The notes under the pieces are model-generated. The model did not search any database and was not told the DNA's origin. It saw nothing but the letters and a program-made list of their open reading frames with translations. The translations under genes and the position numbers were made by a program. This document shows positions 8,662-49,653 of a stretch of 64,000 nt of DNA, one piece after another. Source of the DNA: Omnitrophica WOR_2 bacterium GWF2_43_52 (GTDB lineage Bacteria > Omnitrophota > Gorgyraeia > Gygaellales > UBA12090); NCBI GenBank assembly GCA_001805445.1, contig MHGF01000003.1, positions 54,736 to 118,735 of the forward strand, written 5' to 3'. Within the stretch, counting starts at the first letter, position 1. Each line of letters begins with the position of its first letter.

Positions 8662-8761
8662 GTTTTGACGGTTACTAAACAAGCGGGAATTCATCCCTTC
8701 CTGTATCAGTCTACTGTATTCCATCCCTCGACAGTACAAAATTAAAAAAACTAAAAAAATA

Positions 8762-8790
8762 CTGTATTTGTATCATAACTATGTTATAAT
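8762..8790 (+). promoter_or_regulatory. Candidate sigma70-type promoter with extended -10 (TGT-TATAAT) for the protease operon
   Basis: 'tgtTATAAT' lies at 8782-8790 in a 146-bp AT-rich intergenic gap. A weak -35 'ctgtat' sits 17 nt upstream. The direct repeat 'tactgtatt' occurs twice, at about 8714 and 8759. This is sequence-only and was judged against E. coli consensus. Confidence 0.25.
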
Positions 8791-8807
8791 AATACACATT
8801 ATTAGCT

Positions 8808-29949: not shown

Positions 29950-31256
29950 GCAGATTTTTTTATTCTGAAAAAGTTCTCCTTATTGCAATATGTGTTGCCG
30001 CTCTGATAGTGCGCTTAGGGTTTATGTTTTACCATGATTTCCCTTTGTTTGCAGATGAACTTGAATATGACCGTTTAGCAGTATCACTTTTGGATGGTAA
30101 CGGATACGTAAGCAAGGCAGGTAATGCTACGGCAGGAAGGCCCCCTGGGTATCCACTGCTTGTAAGTACTGTTTACCTTGTTTTTGGACATGAAACTGCA
30201 GTAGTTAAGCTGTTGCAGGCAGCAATAGACAGCCTGACATGTCTTTTAATTTACTTTTTGGGGCGCTCTATTTTTAGTAAAAAAGTAGGATTATTGTCTG
30301 CAATAATTTCAATATTGCATGTAAGCTTTATCGCCCAGTCTTCAAAGCTGTTGACGGAAGGGGTATCGACCTTTTTATTATTGTGCGCGGTACTATTGTT
30401 TCGTAAAGCTTCTCTATCACGGAAAGCACTTTTGTACTGCTTAAGCGGTTTTTTTCTTGGAATTACGTGCATGGTTCGCTCAAATTTTCTTATCCTTAGT
30501 GCAATTTTCTTACTTTTTATGCTTTACGAGTTTTCAAGATTTCCGTTTCTCCGCGATAAACTCATCAAAGGTATGGGATGCTATACAATTGCTTTTTTGT
30601 TCGTTATTTTCCCTTGGAGTATAAGAAATTTTAAGCAATTCCATGCGTTTGTACCTATTTCAACTTTTCAAGGGTATGCTCTTTACGCATCATATAAGCC
30701 GGTAGACGGTAAGATGTATGGATTTGTTCCCTATGATAATGTCATGAAGGAAGCCAACAGCATTGCCTCGGAAACCCAACAGAGTAAATTCCTATCGAAA
30801 AAGGCATTTTTGTTACTTAAAGCTGATCCTCTGCTCTTTTTCAGGCTAATCCCGCTAAAAATTTGCTATTTTTTCAGTCCTTTGGACTGGGAATTAGTTT
30901 ACTCTAAGGTAATATATAACTATTCCTATGTATTTTATTTCCCCTTTTTTTTAACCGGCTTATTTACTTTTAGACATCGGTTACTTGAATTAAACGCATT
31001 ATATCTTCCGGTCATTGGAGTACTTATGTTTACGATTGTGTTATTTGGGATACCTAGATTTAGAATACCTATAGAGCCTTACATGATTATACTTTCAGCA
31101 GCGAGCATTATCCATGTCTATGACACAACGATTCGCAAGCGTAAGATGCTTTTGTGTTTGTGTGCATATTTTACAGCTAATTATGTTTTATTCATAAACT
31201 CGGAAGCAACAAAAATTGCTCTAAGATTTCTCTCACGGAAAGCTGGTCTTTGGTAA
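29931..31256 (+). CDS. GT-C fold membrane glycosyltransferase (GT39/GT83, ArnT/PMT-like)
   Basis: The first-loop motif 'FADELEYD' (DE...Y) follows TM1, as in ArnT/PMT. 'GRPPGYPLL' is present. There are about 10 or more TM segments. It lies downstream of a polyprenyl-P-sugar synthase. Confidence 0.6.
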   Translation: MDYKKLGRFFYSEKVLLIAICVAALIVRLGFMFYHDFPLFADELEYDRLAVSLLDGNGYVSKAGNATAGRPPGYPLLVSTVYLVFGHETAVVKLLQAAIDSLTCLLIYFLGRSIFSKKVGLLSAIISILHVSFIAQSSKLLTEGVSTFLLLCAVLLFRKASLSRKALLYCLSGFFLGITCMVRSNFLILSAIFLLFMLYEFSRFPFLRDKLIKGMGCYTIAFLFVIFPWSIRNFKQFHAFVPISTFQGYALYASYKPVDGKMYGFVPYDNVMKEANSIASETQQSKFLSKKAFLLLKADPLLFFRLIPLKICYFFSPLDWELVYSKVIYNYSYVFYFPFFLTGLFTFRHRLLELNALYLPVIGVLMFTIVLFGIPRFRIPIEPYMIILSAASIIHVYDTTIRKRKMLLCLCAYFTANYVLFINSEATKIALRFLSRKAGLW

Positions 31257-32674
31257 AAATGTTTAATAAAATCGTGATTTTCTTTCTTGGGGCATGTATC
31301 GGGCTTTTAGGTTTCTTCTCGCCCGGGGCATTATTTTTACTCATAGCTGTAGGGTTTACCTGCTTGGCTTTACGACATTATACCCACGGCAGGCAGAGAG
31401 TTTTTCTAATCTCTGTTTTTCTTATTGCATTTTGTATCAGGTTAATAGTGAGCCTTACATTAGATCTTTCCGCACTGGCCATATTTCCAAGCGCTGCGAT
31501 GCGCGAAGTCAAGAACCCCATTCCTGCAGATGATGATTATCAAAACCTTATAAAAGAAAATACGAGAACTTTTTTTAAAATTGGAGATAGCGATTATTCC
31601 TCAGCAAGAGGTTACATGTATGCCGCTGCTGCTCGAGGGATGGATAATAAGGTCATCCGTCATTATCTTGATCCTACCTCTTCATATGGCGTAAACGGGT
31701 ATTTATATGTAATCGGTATGTTTTATTTTCTTTTTGGCTATAGCCCAATTACGGTAAAATTCCTCAACTGCTATTTCGGTGCTGTAGCGGTTATCTTCAT
31801 ATATTTATTGGGGAGAAATTACAATGAAATTGCTGCGAGAATCGCTTGTTTTTTTATGATATTTTTCCCTTCGTTAATCTTGTGGTCAACAACTGATTTA
31901 AAAGACACTTCTACGATGCTGGCTTCTGTCTTGCTCGTTTATTCAATAACATTGATAATGCGAAAAATTACTTTATCTTCTCTATTGTTGATGATATTCG
32001 CTCTTTTGATGCAATTTTTCCTTACAAAAAGAGATCTCTGGTTTTTGTCCCTTATTTCTTTATTCCTCGTTTTTTTTACAGGCATCTTTTTCAACTTGTC
32101 ACAAAGGCAGAAAACGCGCTTATGTGTTTCTGTTATCCTGATTGCACTGCCGCTGGTATCCTTAACGCATATTTTTGATAATGCTGTAATAACAAGAATG
32201 CATAAGCTTTTTATCCACCATATTGGCAATGTGCATACGCAAGGTATTTCATATCGGGTTTTAGATGAAAGCTATTATCACGATCCTGATTCTATCTACG
32301 AAATGCCAACTCAAAAATTGATTACTTCTTCTATCATGGCTGTCATCCATTTCCTACTAGAGCCATTCCCGTCGAGATTCCTGCATAAAAACTTTATAGT
32401 GGTTTGGCCACAGATGATATTCTGGTATTCATTGATACCTTCAATTTTTCTAGGTATAATACTATTGTTGAGGAATTGTATGCAAAAATCACTCCCTGTT
32501 TTCATCTACACCTTTTTGACAACATGTTCAATCGCGATAGGAAGTGGTAATGTAGGAACAGTGTTCCGGCATAGAGATTACGTTACTCAATTTTATTTAT
32601 TATTTGCCGCGATCGGTATATCGAACTGTTTCAAGGCTAAAGAAGGGAAACGAGAAAATGAAGTCGTATTTTAG
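31250..32674 (+). CDS. Polytopic integral membrane protein, unknown function (possible second GT-C/acceptor-side partner)
   Basis: It is 474 aa, very hydrophobic throughout, and coupled to the upstream GT-C gene. I see no soluble catalytic motif. Confidence 0.45.
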   Translation: MVKMFNKIVIFFLGACIGLLGFFSPGALFLLIAVGFTCLALRHYTHGRQRVFLISVFLIAFCIRLIVSLTLDLSALAIFPSAAMREVKNPIPADDDYQNLIKENTRTFFKIGDSDYSSARGYMYAAAARGMDNKVIRHYLDPTSSYGVNGYLYVIGMFYFLFGYSPITVKFLNCYFGAVAVIFIYLLGRNYNEIAARIACFFMIFFPSLILWSTTDLKDTSTMLASVLLVYSITLIMRKITLSSLLLMIFALLMQFFLTKRDLWFLSLISLFLVFFTGIFFNLSQRQKTRLCVSVILIALPLVSLTHIFDNAVITRMHKLFIHHIGNVHTQGISYRVLDESYYHDPDSIYEMPTQKLITSSIMAVIHFLLEPFPSRFLHKNFIVVWPQMIFWYSLIPSIFLGIILLLRNCMQKSLPVFIYTFLTTCSIAIGSGNVGTVFRHRDYVTQFYLLFAAIGISNCFKAKEGKRENEVVF

Positions 32675-35546
32675 GCATTTAAGAGTACTTCAGGTAGTGG
32701 CTATCCTTAACCTTACGCTATTTTTGTCTGTGTTGCTCCTAATAGCTTTATTTTATGGGTTTTGGTACCAAAGCTTACCGGAAAATTCACCAATAAGGTC
32801 AAGGTTACAACTCGGCGCCATCATTTCAAAATTTGAACCCGGCTGGCTTTTTAGCGATTTGAGAAGTTTAAATATTCCTATCTATGATTTAGAAATTAAA
32901 CAAGTAAAGCTGCAAAAGATGTTAGAGGAATTACCGCCCTCTGATGCTCTTATGACCGATGAGTATAGGAAATTTGAATCTGCAAAGTTTAGTTTCGCAG
33001 GACAATCTTATAAGGTCAAAACCAGGATCCGCGGCCTAACCCCTAATCATTGGCAGGATGAAAAAAAGTCGTGGCGGATTAAGTTTAACTCAGACGCTTT
33101 ATTTAATCACACTAAGAGCTTGAATTTGATCATTCCTCAAGATAGAGGCTTTTTTGCGGAATATTTAAGTAATAGTATAGCGCGCAAGCTAAACCTGCTT
33201 ACTCCGCGGGACACTTTCGTCTTCCTGCGCCTCAATGGTGTGTTGCAAGGAGTCTACTATTCAATCGAAACGCCTAGCAAAGTATTTTTAGAATACAATC
33301 GAAAAGTAGATGATGCTAATTTTTACCGCGAAGATAACTGGGATTGGTTCAAATATGGTTTCGATCCGATATTTACAGATATCGGGCATTGGAAGAAAGA
33401 TAACAGTGAAACCTATTCTGGATTTGAAAATTACGCTGATATTGATTACTTATTGACTCTGTTAAATTCTTCAACCGATGAGACCTTTAATAAGGAGATA
33501 CCTGCTTTAATAGATATGGATGTTTTTTTACGTTGGCAGGCGCACTCTATGATAATGGGTAGCTATCATCAGTCAGAACATGGCAATAATAATCTATTTT
33601 TTAACCCTATCACAGGGAAGTTTGAATTCATGCCCTACGATCTTAATATCTTCCCTCTTGAAGGGCAATTCATCGATAAGCCGTATAATCCGCTGGTGAC
33701 AAGAATTTTAGAAAACAGGCGCTTTTTACATGAACGCAATACTATTTTATGGGACTATGTGAATAATCCCACTGATTTAGAAAATGATTTAAAGTTCTAT
33801 GATGATGCCTATCAGAAGTACAAGAAAGCCTTTTATGCAGATAGAAAGAAAGGATTTACAAATTCGAGTTTCGATAACACTGTTTCTCGGTTACGCCGAA
33901 TTTTTATTCAAAATCACAAAAAAATTATTGCTAATCTTGAATTTTGTGAAATTTTTGCCACTGTACATATACACCCAAAGAGCAATAAAATACTTGGTAG
34001 CCTAGATTTGGCACTACATGGCTTTAGTTCAGCAAAGCTCAGCGAGATCATTATACCTTTTTCTGCTGATTCTACGATAACCCAAGGGACCAAGGTTAAC
34101 ATCTATTATGACAGTAACGCATCAGAATATTTTGATGCTGAGGATACCTTTCTCACAAGCCTCACTGCTGACGCACAAAAAAAGTGTTTTAAGGGAGATA
34201 GTTTTTCATTGATGCTGTATTCGGCACGGGATGCCCAGTTGCAGCCAGTGAAGGCTCACTATAAGTTTTTCATTACCGGTAATGCTAACGAAGCAATGCA
34301 ACAGTCACTTGGAGCTATCAACATAGTTGCTTCGAATGCAGTTACAAAAAAACAACTCACACCGATTGTGCGTTGTGTAGATGGACGCCTTTTTTCATCA
34401 TTTCCTCAGGTTACTGCTTCCCTTGATGCCTTTTTGTTAGAATATCCCCAATTTAAGCAAGACGCCAATAGCTCCTTTACTGTGGTACTCGATGCTGGCG
34501 AATATATCATCGACCGGACAATAATTGTTCCTTCAGGTTTGACTTTAATCATTAATCCGGGAGTAGTTCTTAAATTCCAAAAGAGTATATCATTTTTATC
34601 ATACGCTAAGGTTGTGGCCATTGGAAACAAGGAGCATCCGATACGATTCACCGCGCTTGATAAAATTGAGCCTTGGGGGAATTTTGCTGTCATTGGCGAA
34701 AGTTCAGCCTCATCAGAGTTTTCATATTGTATTATTGAATATTCAGGGGAAAGTTATGTAAACGGCATTAAATTTTCTGGCGGCATATCCGTACACGACT
34801 CAGATGTGATAGTGCGTAATTGTATACTTCGCTATAGTTTTGGTGATGACGCGATTAATATTAAGTCCGCTCATTGCATCTTAGAGAATTCCGTGTTCTA
34901 TAAAAACTCATCCGATGCGATAGATTTCGATTTTGCCACCGGGGCGATCGAAAACAATTATATTTTGGATAATACCGGAGACGGTATTGACCTCTGCGGC
35001 ACTGATATTGTGATTGCAGGAAATCGAATAGAAAGTAGCGGGGATAAAGGCATAAGTGTTGGAGAAAGGTCGAAACCAGTTATAGTAAATAATCTGATTC
35101 GCTCCTGCAACATAGGTATTGCATCTAAAGACAAATCTGATGCACGTATTGTCAATTCTACTCTTGTTGATAATAAAACAGGAATTTCCCTCTATATGAA
35201 AAAACAGGTTTTTGGCCCGGCAGCCGTCGAGATACGTAACACAGTGCTATGGAATAATGAAAAAGAAATTATAGCTGACGCAGGTTCTGTTATAGCAATA
35301 AGCGAAAGCACTCTTTCTCTAGGAGCAGAAGGAACATATATCTCTAATTTTACCCCATTGTTTGTAGATATAAAAAATGGGAATTATCTGCTAACTGACA
35401 GCAGAAAAGATTCAACAGGAAAGATTCCTAAAAGCAATATAACATATCTTAAAGATATGCCACAATTCAAGGATCTAAAAGACGCGAACATCGGAATCCT
35501 CACCAACCCCGAAGTAATGTCGTTTGATGATTTCAGCGTGCCCTAA
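32658..35546 (+). CDS. CotH-kinase-family protein with N-terminal membrane anchor and C-terminal right-handed parallel beta-helix (pectin-lyase-like) repeats
   Basis: The N-terminal TM is 'VVAILNLTLFLSVLLLIALFY'. The central CotH-like region is 'YKVKTRIRGLTPNHWQDEKKSWRIKF...LNLIIPQDRG...'. The C-terminus has repeated beta-helix rungs such as 'NCILRYSFGDDAINI', 'ENSVFYKNSSDAIDF', 'ENNYILDNTGDGIDL', 'AGNRIESSGDKGISV' and 'NNLIRSCNIGI'. The likely ATG at 32658 is used; the track start at 32604 overlaps the upstream gene by 70 nt. Confidence 0.6.
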   Translation: MKSYFRHLRVLQVVAILNLTLFLSVLLLIALFYGFWYQSLPENSPIRSRLQLGAIISKFEPGWLFSDLRSLNIPIYDLEIKQVKLQKMLEELPPSDALMTDEYRKFESAKFSFAGQSYKVKTRIRGLTPNHWQDEKKSWRIKFNSDALFNHTKSLNLIIPQDRGFFAEYLSNSIARKLNLLTPRDTFVFLRLNGVLQGVYYSIETPSKVFLEYNRKVDDANFYREDNWDWFKYGFDPIFTDIGHWKKDNSETYSGFENYADIDYLLTLLNSSTDETFNKEIPALIDMDVFLRWQAHSMIMGSYHQSEHGNNNLFFNPITGKFEFMPYDLNIFPLEGQFIDKPYNPLVTRILENRRFLHERNTILWDYVNNPTDLENDLKFYDDAYQKYKKAFYADRKKGFTNSSFDNTVSRLRRIFIQNHKKIIANLEFCEIFATVHIHPKSNKILGSLDLALHGFSSAKLSEIIIPFSADSTITQGTKVNIYYDSNASEYFDAEDTFLTSLTADAQKKCFKGDSFSLMLYSARDAQLQPVKAHYKFFITGNANEAMQQSLGAINIVASNAVTKKQLTPIVRCVDGRLFSSFPQVTASLDAFLLEYPQFKQDANSSFTVVLDAGEYIIDRTIIVPSGLTLIINPGVVLKFQKSISFLSYAKVVAIGNKEHPIRFTALDKIEPWGNFAVIGESSASSEFSYCIIEYSGESYVNGIKFSGGISVHDSDVIVRNCILRYSFGDDAINIKSAHCILENSVFYKNSSDAIDFDFATGAIENNYILDNTGDGIDLCGTDIVIAGNRIESSGDKGISVGERSKPVIVNNLIRSCNIGIASKDKSDARIVNSTLVDNKTGISLYMKKQVFGPAAVEIRNTVLWNNEKEIIADAGSVIAISESTLSLGAEGTYISNFTPLFVDIKNGNYLLTDSRKDSTGKIPKSNITYLKDMPQFKDLKDANIGILTNPEVMSFDDFSVP

Positions 35547-35558
35547 GGTTTCTAAAGT

Positions 35559-36299
35559 ATGAGCATAGAACGGTTCCATATACATAGGTTCGAGTTTAAG
35601 TATCCATTATCCGACAGGCAGTATTCGGCATTTAAAAATGAGCTTTTGCAGTATGTGGATTATGACGAACATTGCCTTGTTAATTCTGATAAAGCTTATA
35701 TGGTGCACTCCTTATATCATGATAGTCCAGCTAACACTTATTTCTGGGAGAAAGCCGACGGATTGCGAAACAGGAAGAAATTTCGCTTTAGAGTTTATGA
35801 TCTGAGCCCTGATAATGAACCGGATATCTACTTAGAAATTAAAAGAAAAACAGATTTTACTATCATTAAGGATAGGGCAAAACTTGATTTTGAAACGTAT
35901 GTATCCGCAGAGAACGGCTCGCCTCTGAAAATGCTTGAGGCCAAGAATATTCCGTCTGATCAAAGGAAAATCATTGAGGAATTTGTATGCGATTCACTTC
36001 GTTTGCATTTAAGGCCTAAGGTGCTAATATCTTATAAGCGCGAAGCATTTACTGCAAAATACCATAAAAATATCCGGATTACTTTTGACAGCCAAATAAA
36101 AAGTTATAAAACAGGCAACATCTTTTCGCCATTTAAACAACCGCACTCGGTTTACACTGAAGGAGTTATTTTAGAACTTAAGTTTAAAGGATCGTTACCG
36201 GAATGGTTTCACTTTTTGGTCCAGAAATATAATTTAGTCAAAGATACCTATTCCAAATATTTTATGTCTATGGTCGAATCGTATAGTCTATCTGTTTAA
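35559..36299 (+). CDS. VTC-domain (CYTH-like triphosphate-tunnel, 'polyphosphate polymerase domain') protein
   Basis: The size is 246 aa. 'YLEIKRK' is an ExExK-like tunnel motif. It follows a CotH gene and precedes a DUF4956-like gene, which is the recurrent CotH/VTC/DUF4956 neighbourhood. Confidence 0.5.
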   Translation: MSIERFHIHRFEFKYPLSDRQYSAFKNELLQYVDYDEHCLVNSDKAYMVHSLYHDSPANTYFWEKADGLRNRKKFRFRVYDLSPDNEPDIYLEIKRKTDFTIIKDRAKLDFETYVSAENGSPLKMLEAKNIPSDQRKIIEEFVCDSLRLHLRPKVLISYKREAFTAKYHKNIRITFDSQIKSYKTGNIFSPFKQPHSVYTEGVILELKFKGSLPEWFHFLVQKYNLVKDTYSKYFMSMVESYSLSV

Positions 36300-36317
36300 T
36301 GAGAGAGGAGTAAATAT

Positions 36318-37004
36318 ATGGGCAACATACTTACAATGGGAGGAGACTACGTTATTGGAGATAATCTGGTTTCAATCGCTATGAATATATCTCTGTCATT
36401 TGTTCTTGGCCTACTTATTGCTACTGTTTATAAAAAAACGCACAAGGGCGTATCGTACTCACAGTCTTTTACTCAGACACTCCTGATTTTAACGGTTATT
36501 TCTACGAGCGCCATGATGGTTATTGGAAGCAGCTTAGCCAAGGCCTTTGGGATGGCTGGAGCGCTTTCCATAATTCGCTTTCGTACAGTAGTCAAGGATC
36601 CTAAAGATATCGGTTTTGTTTTCTTGGCTTTGGTGATTGGAATGGCGTGTGGTACACAAGGGTATTTGATCGCTATTACTACTGCTGCATTACTAACGAT
36701 TATTATTATATCATTGACTAAAGTAAACTTTGGTTCTATTAAAAAGCATAATTTTGTCTTGCGTTATTACCAACAAATGAATCTTATCTCAAATGAAGAG
36801 GTTCACGATTTATTACGCACGTATTTAAAATCCTGTGTTTTATTGAGCATGTTATCACATGAGTCAGGGAAAACATTTGAATTTTCATACAATGTTGATT
36901 TTATAAGTAAAAACGAACAAAATGATTTACTGAAAGAGTTGAGCGCGCGCAAGGGCATCAGTAATGTTTATCTTTTAAATGCGTCAAACGATATAGAGTA
37001 TTGA
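36318..37004 (+). CDS. DUF4956-like small membrane protein
   Basis: It has 3-4 TM segments. 'GALSIIRFRTVVKDPKDIGFVF' resembles the conserved 'RFRT..KD..D' core I recall for DUF4956. Its context after the VTC gene supports the call. Confidence 0.45.
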   Translation: MGNILTMGGDYVIGDNLVSIAMNISLSFVLGLLIATVYKKTHKGVSYSQSFTQTLLILTVISTSAMMVIGSSLAKAFGMAGALSIIRFRTVVKDPKDIGFVFLALVIGMACGTQGYLIAITTAALLTIIIISLTKVNFGSIKKHNFVLRYYQQMNLISNEEVHDLLRTYLKSCVLLSMLSHESGKTFEFSYNVDFISKNEQNDLLKELSARKGISNVYLLNASNDIEY

Positions 37005-37017
37005 TCGTAAAAAAACA

Positions 37018-39672
37018 ATGAAAATTTCGTTAATTTATCCATTATTATCCAGAGCCAGAAGCTTACTTGACGAGAATAAACAATATTGGCCGCCTCTGGG
37101 TTTGGCCTATATCGCTGCGGTACTCGAAAAAAAAGGCCATAGTGTGCAGATTTTAGATAGAGACCTTATTTTACGCAGGAGCAGTTTCGACTTTGACAAG
37201 ACTGATACGATAACCTTAGGGTTGATTAAGGATTTTGGCGCGCAGATTGTCGGTTTTAGCGCGACCACGCCCAATATCTCGGATATAAACTTTTTTTCGT
37301 CAAAAATCAAGAGCATGCTTCCGGGAATGCTCATGGTAATTGGCGGGCCGCATTGTTCCGGTGAACCTGTTGAAACATTAGAAATATGCAAGAATATAGA
37401 TGTCCTTGTCAGAGGTGAAGGAGAGATCACTATGCAAGAAATAGCCAGCGGAGCCCTTATTGACGGTATTGCTGGATTGACATACAGGAGTACGCGCCAA
37501 GGAATCGTTTCTAACATTGACAGGCCGTTGATCGAGGCACTCGATGAGTTACCTTTTCCTGCAAGGCATTTGCTTGATATGGATTATTATACAAGGCCAA
37601 GCAGATTTACTAGCAGAAACCATTCTTTCAGAACGACGCATATTTTTACTGCTCGAGGATGTCCTTATAACTGTCATTACTGCGCAGGGCCTTTAATGGG
37701 GAGGATGACAGTAAGGTATCATTCTGCGCATAGGTTAATCGACGAGATCAAAGAGCTTATCAGTAAATATTCAGTAGAGGCTATTTATTTCGCTGATGAT
37801 ATGTTCTTAAGTAACAAAAAACGCGCCATGGAAATAATCGACTTATTTATTACAAACAGATTGCACAAGAAAATTTCTTGGATCGCACAAATAAACCCAA
37901 ACGTGGCGGATAAAGAGCTCTTATCAGCCATGAAAGAGGCCGGATGCATCCACGTCGAATACGGTTTTGAATCTGGTTCCCAACGAGTTCTAGGGCTTAT
38001 GAATAAAAGGACAAATGTTTTACGCAATAAGGAAGTCGTTAAACTAACGCGAAAGGTAGGCCTTCATTTCCAAGGAAATTTTATCGTTGGATATCCTGGA
38101 GAAACAGAAGACGACTTTGCCGAAACTGTCTCCTTTATAAGAGAAACACGCCCTAATATGGTCTCGATGAATTTATTTATGCCATTGCCGGGAACAGATA
38201 TATACAGAAAACTCAAGCAGAGCGGATGTCTTAATACAAATTGGGATGATTTTGGCAATCCAGACGCGCCTTACATAAATTACGCCGATATGCCGAAATC
38301 TCGTTTCGAGGAGCTTTATTTTCGCGCCAAATTAAAAGTGGTCCTACCAATAAATCTGTTTAATTTTATTAAAAGTAACCTATTGCACCCGCTTAGGCTT
38401 ATCTATGTGTTAATAACCCAATTTAAAGGTGTGTTAAAACGCGCTTTTAAAGCGGCGGCAGAACTCAAGAGAATAGGCAAGAAACATAATCCGCAACCGA
38501 TAGTCCTGCTGGTAGCGTACCACTCTATCACTTATCCGATTATGGAATCCCAGGGGATTTCGTACATTAAAAAATTATCGCACTACGGAATTCAATATTT
38601 TATTCTGACGTACGAAACTCGGGATACTCTTGCTCGATATAAAATAGCAGATACTGACCTCAAGCTGCAAACGAACTGGCATCATCTGTATTATCATAAA
38701 AACCCCAGATTGCTTGCTACGCTCTTTGATGTTATCTGTGGGATGTGGTATGTTTTCTTTATTGTACGCAAAAGCAGGATTAATATAGTGCATGCCAGAG
38801 GTCTAGTGCCAGCGGTTATTGCCTTTTTACCTGCAAAGATAATGGGAGTTAAATTCTTTTTTGATACGAGGGGGCTGCTTGCAGACAAATATGTAGGTGG
38901 GGGATTGCTAAAAAATAAAAGTTTAACGTATAGAGTGATGCGTTTCGCCGAAAATTTTTTAATACAACAATCTGATTCCTTTACTGTCGAAACTATTAGG
39001 CATGCGCAAGTAATCCGTAATAGCAACGTTAGTCTTTCTTCAAAGATGGAAGTGATTCCTTCTTGCGTAGATTTGGATAAATTTAAATGCGATACTTCAA
39101 AACCAGACAGCGGAAAATTTAAGTTAGCCTATATAGGGAAATGCGGAAGCTGGTATATGCTTGATGAGATGTTTGACTTTTTCCGTGTTCTCTTAAAAAT
39201 CTCTTCACAGGCTGTATTTATGCTTGCTACTGATCGAGATCCGAATGAAATCTTTCGCGCTGCGATGCGAAAAGGTATTCCTGAAGACAGCATAGTGGTA
39301 AAAAACCTTTCGCATGCCGAGGTAGCCGGTTTTCTCTCGCGCGCGAGCGCGGGGATATTTTTTATCAACCCGTACAAACGTTATAATTCTTCTCCTACAA
39401 AATATGGAGAATATCTTGCCTGTGGCCTTCCGGTGGTAATCAACAGCGGTATTGGAGATACTGAAGAGATAACTACAAAAATGAATATTGGCGTTATAAT
39501 AAATACTTTTTCAGAAGCATCATATGAATCTGCGGCTAGAAAGCTTCTTGATTTGTGTAAAGACGCCACAAGCGTTCAGACACGCTGTAAGCAGGCTGCC
39601 GAAGAACTTCTTTCACTGAAAAAAGGCGCTGAAAAATATCGCGATATTTTTCAGCACTTGCTAAAGATTTGA
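37018..39672 (+). CDS. Fusion protein: B12-binding radical SAM (class B) N-terminal half + GT4 glycosyltransferase C-terminal half
   Basis: The N-terminal half has 'ISLIYPLLSRARS...WPPLGLAYIAAVL' (B12 domain), 'GEGEITM' and the radical SAM 'CPYNCHYC'. The C-terminal ~380 aa are a GT-B/GT4 with 'FINPYKRYNSSPTKYGEYLACGLPVVINS' in the E-x7-E region. The total is 884 aa. Confidence 0.75.
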   Translation: MKISLIYPLLSRARSLLDENKQYWPPLGLAYIAAVLEKKGHSVQILDRDLILRRSSFDFDKTDTITLGLIKDFGAQIVGFSATTPNISDINFFSSKIKSMLPGMLMVIGGPHCSGEPVETLEICKNIDVLVRGEGEITMQEIASGALIDGIAGLTYRSTRQGIVSNIDRPLIEALDELPFPARHLLDMDYYTRPSRFTSRNHSFRTTHIFTARGCPYNCHYCAGPLMGRMTVRYHSAHRLIDEIKELISKYSVEAIYFADDMFLSNKKRAMEIIDLFITNRLHKKISWIAQINPNVADKELLSAMKEAGCIHVEYGFESGSQRVLGLMNKRTNVLRNKEVVKLTRKVGLHFQGNFIVGYPGETEDDFAETVSFIRETRPNMVSMNLFMPLPGTDIYRKLKQSGCLNTNWDDFGNPDAPYINYADMPKSRFEELYFRAKLKVVLPINLFNFIKSNLLHPLRLIYVLITQFKGVLKRAFKAAAELKRIGKKHNPQPIVLLVAYHSITYPIMESQGISYIKKLSHYGIQYFILTYETRDTLARYKIADTDLKLQTNWHHLYYHKNPRLLATLFDVICGMWYVFFIVRKSRINIVHARGLVPAVIAFLPAKIMGVKFFFDTRGLLADKYVGGGLLKNKSLTYRVMRFAENFLIQQSDSFTVETIRHAQVIRNSNVSLSSKMEVIPSCVDLDKFKCDTSKPDSGKFKLAYIGKCGSWYMLDEMFDFFRVLLKISSQAVFMLATDRDPNEIFRAAMRKGIPEDSIVVKNLSHAEVAGFLSRASAGIFFINPYKRYNSSPTKYGEYLACGLPVVINSGIGDTEEITTKMNIGVIINTFSEASYESAARKLLDLCKDATSVQTRCKQAAEELLSLKKGAEKYRDIFQHLLKI

Positions 39673-40769
39673 AAATCCTTTTTTGGGTGCCTTACCCATC
39701 AGAAGGCGCAAGCAACAGGTACAGGGTAGAACAATACTTGCCTTTCTTAAAAAAAGAGGCGATTAAATTTTCACTCCATCCCTTTTGGACAAAATCCGCA
39801 TATAAAGTTTTATATAGGAATGGATATTACTTCAGAAAGTTTTTCTTCTTTTTTGCGGGTATTCTTTTCAGAACGATTGATGTTTTCAGTATATTCCGTT
39901 ATGATGTGGTTTTTATTCATCGAGAGGCGTGCCCTGTCGGATCAGCTTTTTTCGAATCGGCAGCGTTTTTTTTAGGGAGAGAGGTCATTTTTGATTTTGA
40001 TGATGCAATATTTTTACCTTCAAGCAGCCGTTGCAACAATTTTGTCGAAAAGTTTAAAAACCCGGGGAAAGTCGCCACTATCATTAAGAAAAGTAAATAC
40101 GTAATATGTGGAAATTCATTTTTAGCTGATTTTTCATTGCGATACAATCCGTCGGTTGTTATTATTCCTACGCCAATAGATACGACAAAATATTCTCCTA
40201 TGATAGCCACTGACAACAGGCCAACGATCATTGGTTGGATGGGCAGCGCAACGACTCTTGATTTTCTCGATCCGATGAAGAATGTGTTTACAGTTTTATC
40301 CAGCCTTTTTAATGATGTTGAGTTTAAAATAATCGGGGGGGCATTTTTGATTCCCGGACTTTCAAGAGTAAGGAGCAAATCGTGGTCATTCGCTGACGAA
40401 ATAGATGACCTTAGAAGTATGGATATCGGAATTATGCCTATGCCTGATAACGATTGGACCAGAGGAAAGTGTGGATTCAAGGCAATTCTCTATATGAGCA
40501 TGGGAATTCCCTGCGTTTGTTCTCCGGTAGGCATGAACAAAGAGATAATCATAAATGGTAGCAATGGATTCCTCGCAACTACTCAGGAAGATTGGGTAGA
40601 AAAACTCTCGCTTCTTATAAAAGACTCTGCACTTCGCAGAAAACTTGGTAATGCAGGAAGAAAGACGGTTGAGGAAAGATATTCATTAAAAGCTAATGCT
40701 CAAAAATATTTGGAGGTTTTAAAAAACTGCAAAAAGGTTAATTGCAAACGTTACGGCAGGCATAGCTAA
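39669..40769 (+). CDS. Glycosyltransferase family 4-like (GT-B)
   Basis: The size is 366 aa. 'CGFKAILYMSMGIPCVCSPVGMNKEII' is the GT-B C-domain donor-binding region. The N-terminal 'KILFWVPYPSEGASNRYR' is present. A G7 tract lies at 40335-40341. Confidence 0.65.
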   Translation: MKILFWVPYPSEGASNRYRVEQYLPFLKKEAIKFSLHPFWTKSAYKVLYRNGYYFRKFFFFFAGILFRTIDVFSIFRYDVVFIHREACPVGSAFFESAAFFLGREVIFDFDDAIFLPSSSRCNNFVEKFKNPGKVATIIKKSKYVICGNSFLADFSLRYNPSVVIIPTPIDTTKYSPMIATDNRPTIIGWMGSATTLDFLDPMKNVFTVLSSLFNDVEFKIIGGAFLIPGLSRVRSKSWSFADEIDDLRSMDIGIMPMPDNDWTRGKCGFKAILYMSMGIPCVCSPVGMNKEIIINGSNGFLATTQEDWVEKLSLLIKDSALRRKLGNAGRKTVEERYSLKANAQKYLEVLKNCKKVNCKRYGRHS

Positions 40770-40836
40770 TTTACAGTAAATTAAAAATTAACCTTTTCCT
40801 GCCTTTTAGGGAAAAGACAAGCGGGTATCAATGCCA

Positions 40837-42723
40837 ATGTGCGGAATCTGTGGAATCATAGACTATCGGAGTTCCAGAATAGAAAAAGGTTTGCTTTCGC
40901 GAGCCTCTTCACAGATGTATCATCGCGGCCCTGATGATGAGGGTTTTTACATAGATAATCCTCCTTCAGGGCCAAGTGTAGGCTTAGGGCACAGGAGATT
41001 AAAAATCATAGATCTCTCAGAAGCTGGACATCAGCCGATGACTAATGAAGATGGAACAATTTGGATCGTTTTTAATGGAGAGATTTATAATTTCAATGAA
41101 CTCAAGACAGAATTGGAAAAGAAAAGGCACGTGTTTCGTTCGCGCACCGATACCGAATGCATTATCCACCTGTACGAAGAATTCGGAGAAGAATGTGTGC
41201 ATTATTTACGCGGGATGTTCGCTTTTGCCATTTGGGATAAGAAAAATGAAGTGCTGATCCTGGCTCGAGATAGAGTAGGCAAGAAACCGTTACTCTATTA
41301 TCATAGAAACGGTAGTTTTTGTTTTGCCTCTGAATTTTGTGCTCTGTTAAAATGCAGACAGATTGATAATGAAATAAATATGGAAGCGATTGACGAGTAT
41401 TTGTCATTCGGTTATATTCCGGCTCCGGGGACAATTTACAAACATGTCTTTAAGCTTCCTCCAGCGCATATACTCGTTCTTAAGAATGATGAGGTAAAAA
41501 TAAAACAATATTGGAGTTTAAATTACTTAGATAAGATAAGGATAAGCGAGCAGGAAGCATCGCTAGAAGTGCTGCGATTATTGAAAGAATCCATTGGCCT
41601 TAGGCTCTGTAGCGACGTTCCCTTAGGGGCGTTTTTGAGCGGCGGTGTAGACTCTAGTACCATCGTTGCGCTTATGACGCAGTTATCCGCTAATAAGGTT
41701 AAAACTTTTTCTATCGGTTTTGAGGATAACGATTATAATGAGTTGCAATTTGCAAGAAACATTTCAGAGAAGTTCGGTACTGACCACCATGAGTTCATCG
41801 TGAAGCCAGACGCTCTAAAAATACTTCCTCTATTGGTTGAGCGGTATGGAGAGCCTTATGCCGATTCTTCATGCATCCCTACTTATTACGTGGCACAGCA
41901 GACCAAGCAACACGTCACGGTCGCGCTTAACGGTGACGGAGGTGATGAATTGTTCGCGGGGTACGACAGATATCAGGCAATGCTTTTGACCGCGAGGATG
42001 CCTATCCCTGTAAGGAAGCTCTTAAGCCTTCTCTCTGTGGTCTTGCCAGATTCTACAAACCCTAAGCATAAACTCAGAAGATTAAAGAGATTTCTGAACG
42101 CAGCGGCTTTGCCGTTACAGGATAGGTACCTCAAGTGGATAGGTATATTTGATAGCACTCTTAAAAAGAAAATCTACGCTAACGATTTATTGAAGCAAAT
42201 CGCTGACTCGCGTGCCTTGGATTTTATTAAAACGTTTATGCCAATGGTTAAAAAAAATTTTACTATTGATGCTTTGCTTGCGGCGGATACGCTAACGTAT
42301 TTGCCTTATGACCTCTTGGTTAAAGTCGATATAACCAGTATGGCTAATTCATTGGAAGCTCGATCACCTTTCTTGGACCAAAAACTCATGGAATTTGCAG
42401 CTAGGCTGCCAGTAGAATATAAAATGAGGAATTTTGTTAAGAAGTATATCCTGAAGAAAGCGGTCACAGGCATTCTCCCAAAAGAAAATATTGTAAGAAA
42501 GAAGATGGGCTTTGGAATGCCGGTAGGGAATTGGTTCAGAGGCAACATGAAAGAATTTCTGATAGAAACCATCTTATCAAAAAGATCTTGCAACCGGAAT
42601 TATTTTAATATGAGCGTTATTTCAGGGATGTTGCAGGATCATGTTAAAAATAAAGCAGATTATTCCCTACAGCTTTGGTCTCTCCTGATGTTAGAAATGT
42701 GGCATCAAAGATTTATTGATTGA
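40837..42723 (+). CDS. Asparagine synthetase family amidotransferase, paralog 2
   Basis: 'MCGICGI' holds the Cys2 nucleophile. The M at 40837 is the likely true start, 2 codons inside the track ORF. 'LGHRRLKIIDLS' and 'IVFNGEIYNF' follow. The PP-loop is 'GAFLSGGVDSS'. Confidence 0.85.
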   Translation: MCGICGIIDYRSSRIEKGLLSRASSQMYHRGPDDEGFYIDNPPSGPSVGLGHRRLKIIDLSEAGHQPMTNEDGTIWIVFNGEIYNFNELKTELEKKRHVFRSRTDTECIIHLYEEFGEECVHYLRGMFAFAIWDKKNEVLILARDRVGKKPLLYYHRNGSFCFASEFCALLKCRQIDNEINMEAIDEYLSFGYIPAPGTIYKHVFKLPPAHILVLKNDEVKIKQYWSLNYLDKIRISEQEASLEVLRLLKESIGLRLCSDVPLGAFLSGGVDSSTIVALMTQLSANKVKTFSIGFEDNDYNELQFARNISEKFGTDHHEFIVKPDALKILPLLVERYGEPYADSSCIPTYYVAQQTKQHVTVALNGDGGDELFAGYDRYQAMLLTARMPIPVRKLLSLLSVVLPDSTNPKHKLRRLKRFLNAAALPLQDRYLKWIGIFDSTLKKKIYANDLLKQIADSRALDFIKTFMPMVKKNFTIDALLAADTLTYLPYDLLVKVDITSMANSLEARSPFLDQKLMEFAARLPVEYKMRNFVKKYILKKAVTGILPKENIVRKKMGFGMPVGNWFRGNMKEFLIETILSKRSCNRNYFNMSVISGMLQDHVKNKADYSLQLWSLLMLEMWHQRFID

Positions 42724-43045: not shown

Positions 43046-43750
43046 ATGCGCAGTAAGAAAATTATATTTTTATGTTTTTTAACTCTAAGTATTGCGGTTT
43101 TACCCTTGCTTTGCCTTAGCACTTCAACCCAGCAGTGCATTAATTATAATTGCCGGACAATAATTGTTCCGCTTTACCTCAAAGTATTAAATTTTCTTGA
43201 TCGGCATTGTAACTACATCCGATTAACTAATGAAATTATAGGGAGAGAATCTCTGCCTCAGCAAAAAGTATTGGCCTTATTATCTTGGACATACAGGAAT
43301 ATCCATAAACTTCCAGATGGAGCAGAGGTAGTCGATGACCATGTTTGGAATATTATTATCCGTAGATTCGGGACTAACGATCAATCCGCTGATGTTTTCT
43401 CTACTTTGTGCAACTATGCAGGATTGAGTTCCTTTTACCAGCTTATCTCAGCAATCGATGATAGGGAAAAAATTCCCTTATCCTTTGTCAAAATTGATAA
43501 AGAATGGCACGTGTTTGACACCTATCATGGAGTATATTTCCTAAATTCAAAGAATGGACTTGCCTCAATACATGATATAAAAAAAGGAGACTGCAAAATT
43601 GCTGTTTTTGTGGATGAGGGGATCTCTTTGTTTGATTACCGTCACTATTTTCCGAATTTGCCCGATATACCTGTTGTCGGATTACACAGAGCAAACATAC
43701 AATCGCCGATAAGACGATTAAAATTCGCACTTGAGAAATTTGCCAGATGA
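43046..43750 (+). CDS. Secreted hypothetical protein, possibly transglutaminase-like cysteine-peptidase fold
   Basis: The N-terminal signal is 'KIIFLCFLTLSIAVLPLLCLSTS'. A Cys 'TLCNYAGLSS' is followed by 'KEWHVFDTYHGVYF', which gives a Cys...His...Asp order reminiscent of transglutaminase-like cores. The match to the G-x-C-x-x-[FY]-A motif is imperfect. Confidence 0.35.
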   Translation: MRSKKIIFLCFLTLSIAVLPLLCLSTSTQQCINYNCRTIIVPLYLKVLNFLDRHCNYIRLTNEIIGRESLPQQKVLALLSWTYRNIHKLPDGAEVVDDHVWNIIIRRFGTNDQSADVFSTLCNYAGLSSFYQLISAIDDREKIPLSFVKIDKEWHVFDTYHGVYFLNSKNGLASIHDIKKGDCKIAVFVDEGISLFDYRHYFPNLPDIPVVGLHRANIQSPIRRLKFALEKFAR

Positions 43751-48888: not shown

Positions 48889-49653
48889 ATGCAAAAGAAA
48901 GCAAAACATATTGACCATAAAACAGCCCGTATTTATGGAGATATCTTTCAAGACTTAAGCGACACATCATTTACCCTTAAAGCAAATTCTTATCTTGCGC
49001 GTACGACTTTAAGAAACTCCTGGTTTCAAGGGAAGTGTTGCCTTGATGCCGGTTGCGGAGCAGGCATAGCGGCAGTTGCGCTTGCACGGATAAAAGAAAC
49101 CCGTGTTTACGCCGTTGATTTCTCCGAACACTGCCTTGCGATAGCGCATAAACGCCTAAAGAATTTTAAGCGCTGTTCGCTTTTGAAAGCTTCAGTTTTA
49201 GAGCTTCCATTTAAAGATAACTCCTTTAATTTTATCAATTGTAATGGGGTAGTGCATCATCTGGCTGATTCTCTAAATGTTTTAACAGAATTTTACCGTG
49301 TCCTTTCGCCTTACGGATGGCTTTTTTTAGGAGTATATGGGGCAGGAGGGCTGGCCAACGAATACCAGATCAATATTGGTAGAGTTCTATCTAAAGCAAT
49401 TCCCTATACGATTATGAAAAAAATACTCCCCCAAAAACAGCGCGCGCAAACACTCGATCATTGGTATGCGCCAATACGACATACTTATAGAGAAACCGAG
49501 GTAATAGAGGCGCTGAAAACTTTCAGATTTCAAAATATTAAGCGTCTTTCTTCCGATTTCTATCGAAAGCCAGGGGACTGCCTAGAAAAGTTAAAACTCG
49601 GGCCAGATGGAATGTATATGCATTTTTTGGCCCAAAAAGTTATTTCTTCATGA
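48889..49653 (+). CDS. Class I SAM-dependent methyltransferase
   Basis: Motif I is 'CLDAGCGAGIAA'. 'FNFINCNGVVHHL' is present. Confidence 0.7.
   Translation: MQKKAKHIDHKTARIYGDIFQDLSDTSFTLKANSYLARTTLRNSWFQGKCCLDAGCGAGIAAVALARIKETRVYAVDFSEHCLAIAHKRLKNFKRCSLLKASVLELPFKDNSFNFINCNGVVHHLADSLNVLTEFYRVLSPYGWLFLGVYGAGGLANEYQINIGRVLSKAIPYTIMKKILPQKQRAQTLDHWYAPIRHTYRETEVIEALKTFRFQNIKRLSSDFYRKPGDCLEKLKLGPDGMYMHFLAQKVISS

Follow-up and report, generated by a model that had tools for sequence, protein, structure and literature searches.

At positions 37,018 to 39,672 of the DNA analysed here (64 kb in total, hereafter the window), one forward-strand open reading frame encodes what appear to be two enzymes in a row: a radical SAM enzyme with a B12-type domain and a glycosyltransferase (GT). 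This raises two questions: is the protein a genuine fusion, and, if so, what might its two halves do together? The features of the reading frame are as follows.

37018..39672, + strand: whole fusion ORF, ATG start, 884 amino acids plus stop; radical SAM module with a B12-type domain, followed in frame by a GT4-like GT-B module
37039..37110, + strand: signature loop PLLSRARSLLDENKQYWPPLGLAY (residues 8-31), after strand beta1 of the Rossmann domain; invariant in the family
37066..37443, + strand: B12-binding-type Rossmann domain (residues 17-142); PF02310, 70.6 bits against a cutoff of 32.1
37414-37425, + strand: GEGE (residues 133-136), inside the Rossmann domain
37648..38139, + strand: radical SAM core barrel (residues 211-374); PF04055, 83 bits against a cutoff of 29.5
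37660-37683, + strand: CX3CX2C cluster motif CPYNCHYC (residues 215-222; C215, C219, C222)
38296..38475, + strand: two long C-terminal helices of the radical SAM module (residues 427-486), from DSSP of the AlphaFold2 model
38476..38499, + strand: linker GKKHNPQP (residues 487-494), at the fusion junction
38500..39087, + strand: N-terminal (acceptor-side) Rossmann domain of the GT-B module (residues 495-690), from Pfam, model and fold matches
39103..39669, + strand: C-terminal (donor-side) Rossmann domain of the GT-B module (residues 696-884), from Pfam and fold matches
39388-39459, + strand: family motif SSPTKYGEYLACGLPVVINSGIGD, within the C-terminal GT-B domain; K795, E798, N809 and D814 are 97-99% conserved

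The reading frame and its fused and split relatives

The initial annotation had described a single polypeptide of 884 residues without frameshift or stop, and the frame statistics bear this out: there are zero internal stops in the coding frame, compared with 63 and 70 in the other two forward frames over the same span. The frame is open across the junction, the region that the annotation had singled out for checking; a sequence scan found no homopolymer run of five or more nucleotides near the junction, and the junction in the window contains no start codon or ATG/TGA remnant. A second assembly contains a 99%-identical sequence with the identical junction. The annotation had named a missing linker as a sign of a chimera. 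A linker of about eight residues is present, and every fused homologue has an equivalent one, variable in length and sequence and always short; in two distant fused members, a vestigial Met survives in the linker.

Could a sequencing frameshift or an assembly chimera nevertheless have joined two separate genes? The split forms of relatives (see below) have a four-base overlap, so that a one-base error could mimic a fusion, and the comparison data are MAGs throughout. We consider this explanation extremely improbable, and in effect refuted by the frame statistics, the remnant-free junction, its exact match in an independent sequence and the existence of 47 clusters of fused homologues. The nearest relatives (P0002, P0005, P0011 and P0016; 59-62% identity) are all fused, the clusters come from many projects, three members (P0033, P0040 and P0045) were recovered on several contigs or from several sources, and synteny is kept on both sides. 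The fusion is almost certainly natural.

The 47 clusters (at 90% identity) came from a database search; they have the same domain set, are full-length and 43-62% identical, and belong mostly to Omnitrophota MAGs. Our literature search found no published description of a radical SAM-GT fusion, while proteins of this architecture are already public, labelled generically (for example as 'radical SAM protein'). The annotation's remark that the architecture had not been described thus holds for papers but not for databases: the architecture is uncharacterised, not unseen.

In seven further loci (L001, L005, L007, L008, L009, L011 and L086), the same two enzymes are encoded by adjacent genes, a radical SAM gene followed by a GT gene (GT_A, the name used here also for the GT half of the fusion), which overlap by ATGA or similar. 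Over its whole length, the split GT aligns with fusion residues 497-884 (46% identity, E 2e-127), and there are at least 18 pairs in which a stand-alone radical SAM protein and a stand-alone GT_A are encoded on the same contig. This is the classical Rosetta-stone situation, with both orthologous genes separate yet adjacent in other genomes. Tight adjacency and translational coupling persist over the range of 43-68% identity, and in all loci of this range the radical SAM gene precedes GT_A. On a neighbour-joining tree, fused and split forms are intermixed, with about 11 changes between them, which implies that the gene boundary has opened and closed repeatedly. The fusion itself appears to be evolutionarily cheap and reversible.

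The annotation had taken the covalent fusion to imply that the two halves act in sequence on the same substrate. The adjacent split genes, with their overlapping stop and start codons, strengthen the inference of functional coupling; the lability of the fusion and the existence of other module combinations weaken the case for obligate substrate channelling. Indeed, the fusion may be a near-neutral by-product of the stop/start overlap in a fusion-prone lineage, its halves belonging to the same pathway but to non-consecutive steps, with no channelling; as a variant, the radical SAM domain might tailor the nucleotide-sugar donor or a distant residue. With an ATGA overlap, one small indel suffices to fuse or split the genes, and the tree shows frequent changes. 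The same modules are also fused in other ways (GT4-GT4, PMT_2-GT4, radical SAM-methyltransferase and a five-fold radical SAM protein), and Omnitrophota have been reported to make very long multi-enzyme proteins with GT1 and radical SAM domains (bioRxiv 10.64898/2026.06.07.730766). At about 38% identity, moreover, GT_A adjoins a membrane protein (protein X, described below) without a radical SAM gene, and the radical SAM partner is thus not obligatory. Against this stand the fixed order and translationally coupled adjacency, the linkers that stay short, and the threefold occurrence in the window of stop/start coupling between a radical SAM gene and a GT gene, involving different GT classes, which suggests specific enzyme pairs. 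We rate near-neutrality as rather unlikely and lean, on balance, towards both domains acting consecutively on one intermediate.

The two enzyme halves

The N half belongs to the radical SAM superfamily, as judged from its cluster motif, an above-threshold profile and fold matches to AprD4, MgmA, TsrM and MiaB; the fusion is not a new enzyme superfamily. In an alignment of 30 fused homologues, the three cysteines of the CX3CX2C motif, GEGE and many other N-half residues are invariant. Foldseek matched the N half to AprD4 (TM 0.77) and MgmA (0.75), and also to TsrM and TokK; E values for the structurally characterised class-B enzymes and AprD4 were 1e-21 to 1e-16. In a sequence search, MgmA was matched with E 2e-28. 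Sequence matches to true cobalamin enzymes extend over the Rossmann domain (TokK over residues 74-262, CysS over 63-249, TsrM over 28-385), whereas the match to AprD4 starts only at residue 167. A pattern search showed the signature loop PLLSRARSLLDENKQYWPPLGLAY to be common to the fusion family and distant archaeal B12-radical SAM relatives, and it may occupy the position of the DxHxxG loop of canonical B12 domains. To our knowledge, there is no universal sequence motif for cobalamin binding. Related domains that lack cobalamin occur in AprD4 and in ArsL homologues (PMC12931638). The 'B12-binding radical SAM module' of the annotation is thus confirmed as to its domains (PF02310, PF04055) and motifs, while the term B12 derives from domain homology alone and the best structural match, AprD4, lacks cobalamin. 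By its sequence matches, the N-terminal domain probably does use cobalamin.

The best curated family for the N half is TIGR03471 (HpnJ), matched over residues 19-410 with an E value of 5.7e-55 and 187 bits, short of the equivalog cutoff of 577.6; TIGR02026 (BchE) follows with 148.5 bits against a cutoff of 481.35, and no curated equivalog cutoff was exceeded by the N half. The radical SAM domain might be no methylase and instead rearrange the sugar just attached or change it by redox chemistry: HpnJ-like or calditol-synthase-like ring contraction to a carbocycle (cyclitol), AprD4-like diol dehydration or deoxygenation, or radical epimerisation. HpnJ itself is not a methylase; its reaction turns a glucosaminyl head group, put in place by the glycosyltransferase HpnI, into a cyclitol ether (PMC12324291); calditol synthase likewise works on the hexose head group of GDGT, and AprD4 is a cobalamin-independent sugar-diol dehydratase. 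In all these precedents the GT acts first and the radical SAM enzyme second, on the attached sugar, a good fit to a fusion with a GT. However, the HpnJ score is one third of the family cutoff, the gene module has no conserved HpnK-like deacetylase, the Rossmann domain resembles those of true cobalamin binders rather than that of AprD4, and the class-B members characterised so far are mostly methylases (PMC9204698, PMC12931638). HpnJ co-clusters with the C-methylases Fom3 and MoeK5 (PMC9204698), and sugar C-methylation by B12-radical SAM enzymes has precedents in GenK, GenD1 and MoeK5 (PMC9204698; PMC4340712). We consider non-methylase chemistry unlikely, HpnJ-like rearrangement being the main rival to methylation; C-methylation specifically, by analogy with these enzymes, is our tentative assignment.

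The radical SAM module ends in two long helices, which also occur in stand-alone radical SAM homologues. The second (residues 458-486) is strongly amphipathic and basic, with a hydrophobic moment of 0.53-0.60 and seven Lys/Arg residues, and may bind to a membrane surface. Together with a very hydrophobic helix in the N-terminal GT-B domain (residues 564-586), it suggests membrane association.

The annotation had placed a GT4 domain at about residues 500-884; modelling and Foldseek show a complete GT-B domain of GT4-type fold at 495-884. The AlphaFold2 model (mean pLDDT 85.9) contains both Rossmann domains of the GT-B fold, from the strand at 495-499 through residue 884, and is of low confidence only at 196-199 and 489-491; given a pTM of 0.59, its inter-domain geometry is unreliable. 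The closest folds are BshA (TM 0.80-0.81) and MshA (0.76-0.78), and PglA and PimB' were also matched. Family profiles score marginally: PF00534 (Glycos_transf_1, residues 696-862) barely exceeds its cutoff (26.5 against 26.4 bits), whereas PF13439 (Glyco_transf_4, residues 519-688; 25.7 against 28.5), PF13692 (25.4 against 27) and PF13579 (18.4 against 29.7) fall below theirs, as does TIGR04063 (stp3, a PEP-CTERM/XrtA-system glycosyltransferase; 51.7 against 442).

The active site of the GT half is conserved in a form of its own. Near-invariant features of the N-terminal GT-B domain are H592-x-R594, F-D616-x-R618-G and E645; across 231 sequences, these residues (H592, R594, D616, R618 and E645) and K795, E798, N809 and D814 are 96-99% conserved. 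An 'E-x7-E-like' donor site, as annotated, is half right: E798, the second Glu, is 99% conserved, but strict EX7E is missing, position 790 being Gly, Asn, Ala or Ser in the 231 members (Asn790 in the window). The phosphate-binding G-R-x-x-x-K pair is missing, too: G707 is invariant, but position 708 is Lys (130 sequences) or Ser (88), and the usual Lys is replaced by Trp or Tyr (712-713). K795, which is 98% conserved, may substitute for the phosphate-binding Lys. With these residues replaced and the Pfam scores marginal, the donor and the mechanism are not readable from the sequence. A degenerate, non-catalytic GT domain was considered and ruled out by the conservation of the cleft residues. 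Judging from residue conservation in both halves, the two domains are probably both catalytically active.

The gene module and a proposed function

The radical SAM/GT_A pair, fused or split, is part of a conserved gene module with the order protein X - radical SAM - GT_A - GT_B - AsnB. In the window, the other members are found at the following positions.

31250..32674, + strand: protein X, a membrane protein with about 10 transmembrane segments and no Pfam match; E 3e-38 to L087_X
39669..40769, + strand: GT_B, stand-alone GT1-family glycosyltransferase of 366 aa, the conserved downstream partner
40831..42723, + strand: AsnB-type glutamine amidotransferase, conserved (48-60% identity in L003, L007, L009 and L011)
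43046..43750, + strand: 234-aa protein with an N-terminal hydrophobic anchor and no Pfam match (about 40% identity in L003, L005 and L013)

GT_B is the stand-alone GT that the annotation had noted at 39669; its TTG start overlaps the TGA stop of the fusion (TTGA). Homologues are found next to P0018 (58% identity) and directly downstream of the pair in five loci (43-57%). GT_B is not a duplicate of the fused GT, as the two have only a weak 89-residue C-terminal match in common. Some proteins with an N-terminal GT_A looked like candidate GT_A-GT_B fusions; they were rejected as tandem GT4-GT4 proteins without a significant match to GT_B. The 234-aa protein is often kept after the module. Protein X adjoins the radical SAM/GT_A pair in related loci and is conserved. 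It is possibly GT-C-like, but with an hhalign probability of 39% and a match to PF13231 in one of five members, the case for a GT-C/PMT-like enzyme and for a link to PMT_2 is only suggestive.

The window as a whole is a glycan island. Besides its six B12-radical SAM genes, many GTs and AsnB paralogues, it encodes Wzx-type flippases, DegT aminotransferases, a GFO/IDH/MocA oxidoreductase and a carbamoyltransferase. Neither the carbamoyltransferase nor an HpnK-like deacetylase is a conserved member of the module in the loci compared. No cobalamin riboswitch or other RNA element was detected in the window at Rfam gathering thresholds.

We propose that the fusion is a genuine bifunctional enzyme that arose, in an Omnitrophota-like bacterium, by in-frame joining of two neighbouring, translationally coupled surface-glycan genes. 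GT_A would take its sugar from a nucleotide-sugar donor and attach it to a glycan acceptor that is membrane-bound and probably polyprenyl-linked. With a [4Fe-4S] cluster, SAM and probably cobalamin, the N-terminal domain would then alter that sugar or an adjacent residue at an unactivated carbon, most likely by C-methylation as in the action of MoeK5 on the lipid-linked uronic acid of moenomycin, and the product would pass to the translationally coupled GT_B and the AsnB-type amidotransferase. The membrane-linked acceptor, the order of the steps, the use of cobalamin and methylation are all things that we infer. A bifunctional membrane-glycan GT and radical SAM enzyme, with methylation favoured, is the best overall explanation, and we would call its chances evenly balanced.

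The acceptor might instead be a membrane glycolipid rather than a polysaccharide or glycoprotein glycan, in which case the GT would supply a lipid with its head-group sugar, and the radical SAM domain would alter this head group or the lipid itself. Proteins distantly related to the radical SAM half are widespread among archaea, in which MoeK5-like B12-radical SAM enzymes methylate tetraether lipids (PMC11214058). HpnJ and calditol synthase work on lipid head groups, many GT4 enzymes make glycolipids (for example PimA and PimB', the latter a fold match), and the fusion contains hydrophobic and amphipathic helices. The genomic context, however, is a classical glycan island, and the window contains no lipid-synthesis genes. 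In a comparison aimed at the archaeal GMGT methylase Gmm, the one Thermococcus relative examined (L072, 32% identical to the N half) was located outside any gms/grs cluster, and the neighbours of the archaeal relatives are heterogeneous. These neighbours, with a GT2 in just two of ten cases, also give no support to the idea that the distant archaeal relatives are GT-associated. We regard a glycolipid product as quite improbable, and retain the surface-glycan proposal.

Only a minority of the very large family of class-B radical SAM enzymes have a known substrate. The fusion and its widespread coupled split form name a partner enzyme and, with it, a likely class of substrate, namely a sugar that a GT4-like transferase of a surface-glycan pathway has just added; this makes the radical SAM chemistry directly testable. 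With three of the six B12-radical SAM genes GT-coupled, the locus also points to an unusually heavy radical tailoring of the surface glycans of Omnitrophota, a phylum of which hardly any members have been cultured and in which the cell surface is probably central to a host-attached lifestyle. A bolder reading, which we put forward as doubtful, is that paired tailoring units of a glycosyltransferase and a class-B radical SAM enzyme are a previously unrecognised class. The surface glycans of uncultivated Omnitrophota would then contain C-methyl-branched or carbocyclic (cyclitol-type) sugars, made by radical chemistry on a lipid-linked intermediate at the membrane, with every one of the six B12-radical SAM genes reserved for the sugar that its coupled GT adds. 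If true, the reach of cobalamin-dependent radical SAM chemistry would widen beyond antibiotics and lipids to the assembly of cell-surface polysaccharides.

Comparison with known systems

The radical SAM half shares its N-terminal Rossmann domain and radical SAM barrel with MgmA/QCMT (9CCB), TsrM (6WTE/6WTF), TokK (7KDX), CysS (9N1B), OxsB (5UL4) and AprD4 (6FD2). These structurally characterised class-B enzymes and AprD4, which is without cobalamin, are only 14-23% identical to it, none is fused to a GT, and they act on peptides, carbapenems, nucleotides or an aminoglycoside. The GT half has the GT-B fold of retaining GT4 enzymes (BshA, MshA, PglA, PimB' and the MMP mannosyltransferase) and Gtf3-type enzymes, with TM scores of 0.71-0.81. 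Gtf3 (4W6Q, 3QKW) and BshA give weak sequence matches, and homologues are annotated with PF26337 (Gtf3_C). The second Glu of EX7E and a G-x-P-V motif are conserved in the fusion family as in GT4 enzymes; unlike these, the family lacks the first Glu and the GR...K pair, has its own signature (H-x-R, F-D-x-R-G and S-S-P-x-K-x-G-E-Y-L) and scores at or below the Pfam thresholds.

The HpnI/HpnK/HpnJ pathway and the calditol synthase Cds offer a similar sequence of events, in which a GT puts a hexose or hexosamine on a lipid and a B12-domain radical SAM enzyme then transforms the sugar. The N half of the fusion is not an HpnJ orthologue, its score being far below the family cutoff; HpnI is not GT4-like, and the Hpn proteins are unfused. 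A hopanoid context (squalene-hopene cyclase, HpnH, HpnI or the deacetylase HpnK) was not found among the annotated ORFs of the window, in a Pfam scan of the ORFs beyond 19424.

In moenomycin biosynthesis, MoeF5 carries out an amidation and MoeGT1 is a glycosyltransferase, and both act with MoeK5 on one lipid-linked uronic acid. These are separate proteins of another organism, their product is an antibiotic rather than a surface glycan, and the carbamoyltransferase that forms part of the analogy is not conserved with the Omnitrophota module, although one is present in the window. The likeness of MoeK5 to the N half is one of enzyme class and family clustering, not of direct sequence comparison: MoeK5 falls into one cluster with HpnJ (PMC9204698), the family that the N half matches best. 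In both systems, a class-B radical SAM enzyme, GT-B glycosyltransferases and an AsnB-like amidotransferase are genetically linked, and the substrate, in moenomycin as in our proposal, is a sugar on a lipid carrier.

A single reading frame with two enzymatic halves

The ORF at 37018..39672 (+ strand, ATG start) encodes 884 residues with zero internal stops, whereas there are 63 and 70 stops in the remaining two forward frames over 37018..39672. No homopolymer run is found near the domain boundary, and the single-polypeptide description of the initial annotation holds. Its B12-binding and radical SAM module was also correctly recognised: both Pfam domains score over their cutoffs, and the two motifs are in place. 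The protein contains the following elements:

Residues 17-142, B12-binding domain (Pfam 70.6 bits, cutoff 32.1)
Residues 133-136, GEGE
Residues 211-374, Radical_SAM domain (Pfam 83 bits, cutoff 29.5)
Residues 215-222, CPYNCHYC
Residues 519-688, Glyco_transf_4 N-domain (Pfam 25.7 bits, slightly under cutoff)
Residues 696-862, Glycos_transf_1 C-domain (Pfam 26.5 bits, cutoff 26.4)

The AlphaFold2 model, calculated from 30 homologues, is confident (mean pLDDT 85.9; below 50 only at residues 196-199 and 489-491), and Foldseek comparison with the PDB divides it cleanly into two halves. For the N half, the matches are AprD4 (TM 0.77), MgmA/QCMT (0.75), which is the MCR glutamine C-methylase, and TsrM. 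The matches of the C half, here called GT_A, are retaining GT4 enzymes: BshA (0.80-0.81), MshA (0.76-0.78), PglA, MMP mannosyltransferase and PimB'. Both halves belong to known superfamilies, and neither attains any curated equivalog threshold.

The two-domain architecture recurs. Searching 5.8 billion proteins gave 47 clusters with the same Pfam set and lengths of 861-910 aa (at least 97% query coverage, 43-62% identity), mostly labelled Candidatus Omnitrophota/Omnitrophica. One database protein, P0001, is 99% identical to the fusion and has the identical junction. It differs from window positions 37018-39669 by six residues (E134K, E136K, M139I, P391Q, T407K, P742Q), all of them G>A or C>A changes; three of the six are at family-invariant positions, two of these in GEGE. 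Because these two strike an invariant motif, the window copy looks the better one, and the differences look like sequencing damage or error in P0001 rather than in the window. The linker of the fused proteins, which runs from the last radical SAM helix (ending near residue 486) to the first GT strand, is basic and variable in length and sequence (roughly 7-20 residues). In the window it reads GKKHNPQP, with no remnant of a start codon; two distant fused members have a Met two or three residues ahead of the GT strand. Synteny is kept on both sides of the fusion in related loci. Given the recurrent clusters, the identical junction in P0001, the variable linkers and the two-sided synteny, we rejected an artefact as the explanation of the fusion.

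Fused and split forms of the family

In the same search, the radical SAM half was also found by itself, in 68 proteins of ~490 aa that are 51-68% identical to the N half. The GT half alone retrieved 579 homologues. Most of them are stand-alone proteins of 390-420 aa, and at least 18 of the 579 share contigs with stand-alone radical SAM matches, as judged from equal lengths of the longest contig. In L001/L002, from an Omnitrophota MAG, the radical SAM gene (8001-9479) overlaps the start of a 399-aa GT by ATGA, and this GT aligns end to end with fusion residues 497-884 (46% identity, E 2e-127). At the nucleotide level, the radical SAM and GT_A genes overlap by ATGA in L001, L007, L008, L009 and L011, and are truly fused in frame in the window, in L003/L004 and in L013. 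The two genes are separated by a 2-base gap in L005 and overlap by 16 bases in L086. The gene arrangement in L014 (Nitrospirae bacterium GWF2_44_13, a label that is an outlier amid the Omnitrophota matches) includes a masked N run at 10739-10768 that breaks the radical SAM gene; its GT half comes after a stop, in the same frame, so the pair may be either fused or split.

When the radical SAM halves are placed in an NJ tree (no bootstrap), fused and split forms intermix, with ~11 parsimony changes, and the window's own clade is fused throughout. Just two clear full-length representatives, P0038 and P0241, emerged when 1.84 billion 50%-identity representatives were searched exhaustively with an HMM. 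The fused family, though real, is small.

The exhaustive search, together with a Pfam scan, also turned up other fusions of the same modules: tandem GT4-GT4 proteins (P0242-P0245), a PMT_2 (GT-C) enzyme fused to GT_A (P0336), GT_A preceded by N-terminal regions without a known domain (P0358, P0322), and a B12-radical SAM enzyme fused to a class-I SAM methyltransferase (P0255). P0257, at 2,331 aa, has five Radical_SAM domains, three B12-binding domains and one SPASM domain; it and the other giant relatives P0259, P0262, P0365, P0297 and P0290 each contain 3-6 radical SAM-like stretches. According to a 2026 preprint on complete Omnitrophota genomes, the modules that make up the very long proteins of this phylum include GT1 and radical SAM domains (10.64898/2026.06.07.730766). 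Given these observations, fusing adjacent glycan genes is a habit of the lineage, and this tempers the step from fusion to channelling, and with it the initial proposal that the fused domains act in succession on one substrate. A literature search did not find a paper describing a radical SAM-GT fusion, in agreement with the initial annotation; the sequences were already public under generic names. The fusion is uncharacterised, recurrent and labile, and serves as a Rosetta stone.

A conserved module in a glycan island

The entire 64-kb window is a glycan island, all on one strand, with at least six SAM methyltransferases, many GTs, a DegT aminotransferase, a GFO/IDH/MocA oxidoreductase, a carbamoyltransferase, a PMT_2 GT-C enzyme and the following genes:

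21143-22702, 27101-28564, 28561-29949, 37018-39672, 49650-51071 and 56696-58171, six B12-radical SAM genes (27-34% mutual identity)
53869-54876, SPASM radical SAM gene
10107, 40831, 54883 and 61355, four AsnB paralogues
19611 and 51100, two Wzx-type flippases

This density of radical SAM genes is unusually high for a polysaccharide locus. An Rfam scan of window 1-64000 found zero families at the gathering threshold, the cobalamin riboswitch included, despite the many B12-type enzymes.

Comparison of related loci defined a conserved module consisting of X, the radical SAM enzyme, GT_A, GT_B, AsnB and often a 234-aa anchored protein. Besides the fusion, its members are:

31250-32674, X, a ~10-TM membrane protein without Pfam match (E 3e-38 to L087_X)
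L087 5710-7008, L001 4158-5510, L003 6734-7996 and L085 5658-7004, X family members elsewhere
39669-40769, GT_B, a stand-alone glycosyltransferase, 43-58% identical and immediately downstream in five loci
40831-42723, AsnB-type amidotransferase, 48-60% identical in related loci
43046-43750, 234-aa protein with an N-terminal hydrophobic anchor or signal, without Pfam match

The stand-alone GT noted initially is indeed present, its TTG start overlapping the TGA stop of the fusion, and the 234-aa protein is ~40% conserved after the module in L003, L005 and L013. At ~38% identity, GT_A couples straight to X; the gene for the radical SAM enzyme is then missing or one gene farther off. In distant loci, X overlaps the start of GT_A directly. 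X-GT_A therefore looks like the older core, to which the radical SAM enzyme would have been added for tailoring. A likeness of X to PMT_2 is only suggestive (profile comparison, probability 39%; one member matches PF13231 at 5e-5).

Stop/start coupling of a radical SAM gene to a GT gene occurs three times in the window, counting the fusion as one. The radical SAM gene 28561-29949 overlaps the PMT_2 GT-C gene 29931-31256 by 19 bases, and 56696-58171 overlaps the GT1+DUF218 gene 58168-60036 by 4 bases. The latter GT is conserved (47-57%) in L007, L009 and L011, there too with a radical SAM gene upstream, which suggests that pairing one radical SAM enzyme with each GT is a general pattern.

Between X and the fusion, at 32604-37004, lie genes for a 980-aa CotH-kinase plus beta-helix protein, a VTC-domain protein and a DUF4956 membrane protein. 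No related locus that we examined has a similar cassette, so it looks inserted into the conserved module. The 980-aa ORF may have been given the wrong start: its annotated TTG creates a 71-base overlap with the ORF before it.

Active sites and proposed chemistry

The N half has many residues that are invariant in 30 fused proteins, among them the three cluster cysteines and GEGE. Also invariant is a 24-residue N-terminal loop, PLLSRxRSxxDENKQYWPPLGLAY, located where canonical B12 domains carry the DxHxxG loop:

37039-37110, residues 8-31, family-invariant loop PLLSRARSLLDENKQYWPPLGLAY

Its core (DENKQ[YF]W, PPLGLAY) is common to hundreds of B12-radical SAM proteins from Bathyarchaeia, DPANN, Asgard and Methanomethylicota at 31-37% identity. 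The genes neighbouring these archaeal relatives are heterogeneous, and the Thermococcus relative L072 is not within a GMGT gene cluster.

Ten positions in the GT_A cleft (H592, R594, D616, R618, E645, G707, K795, E798, N809, D814) are 96-99% conserved in 231 fused and stand-alone sequences, so the GT half appears to form a subfamily of GT4-like enzymes that has diverged but is functional. In this set, other residues take the positions of the first Glu of EX7E and of the GR...K pair. The E-x7-E-like site proposed initially is not a genuine E-x7-E: E798 is kept, but 8 residues before it the window has N, and the family G/N/A/S. K795 may substitute in phosphate binding. Two helices suggest action at the membrane surface: one amphipathic and basic (458-486), the other, in the GT N-domain (564-586), strongly hydrophobic.

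The fusion event is evolutionarily cheap; the chemistry we infer. In the best-supported reading, a membrane-bound, lipid-linked glycan would first receive a sugar from GT_A; the radical SAM domain would then take H from an unactivated carbon of that sugar or a neighbouring one, most likely for methyl transfer via methylcobalamin, and GT_B and AsnB would carry the pathway on. As indirect support, the Rossmann domain of the fusion aligns with those of the true cobalamin enzymes TokK, CysS and TsrM, and AprD4 aligns only from residue 167 onward. The best curated family for the N half is HpnJ, at 187 bits; this is below the cutoff of 577.6, and the N half is therefore not an HpnJ orthologue. Sequence networks place HpnJ in the same cluster as the C-methylases Fom3 and MoeK5 (PMC9204698). 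The main rival is a non-methylating reaction on the sugar: HpnJ turns a GT-attached glucosamine into a cyclitol (PMC12324291), calditol synthase has a hexose head group as its substrate, and AprD4, a fold match of the N half, dehydrates a sugar diol. The two chemistries are inseparable by sequence.

The fusion supplies a specific hypothesis, open to test, on what one clade of orphan class-B radical SAM enzymes uses as substrate, and hints at radical tailoring of Omnitrophota surface glycans. A precedent is moenomycin, in which a lipid-linked sugar is methylated by MoeK5 and the same residue is acted on by a GT and an AsnB-type amidotransferase. The proposed pathway resembles that of moenomycin, as it too would have a radical SAM enzyme acting on a lipid-linked sugar alongside a GT and an AsnB-type enzyme.
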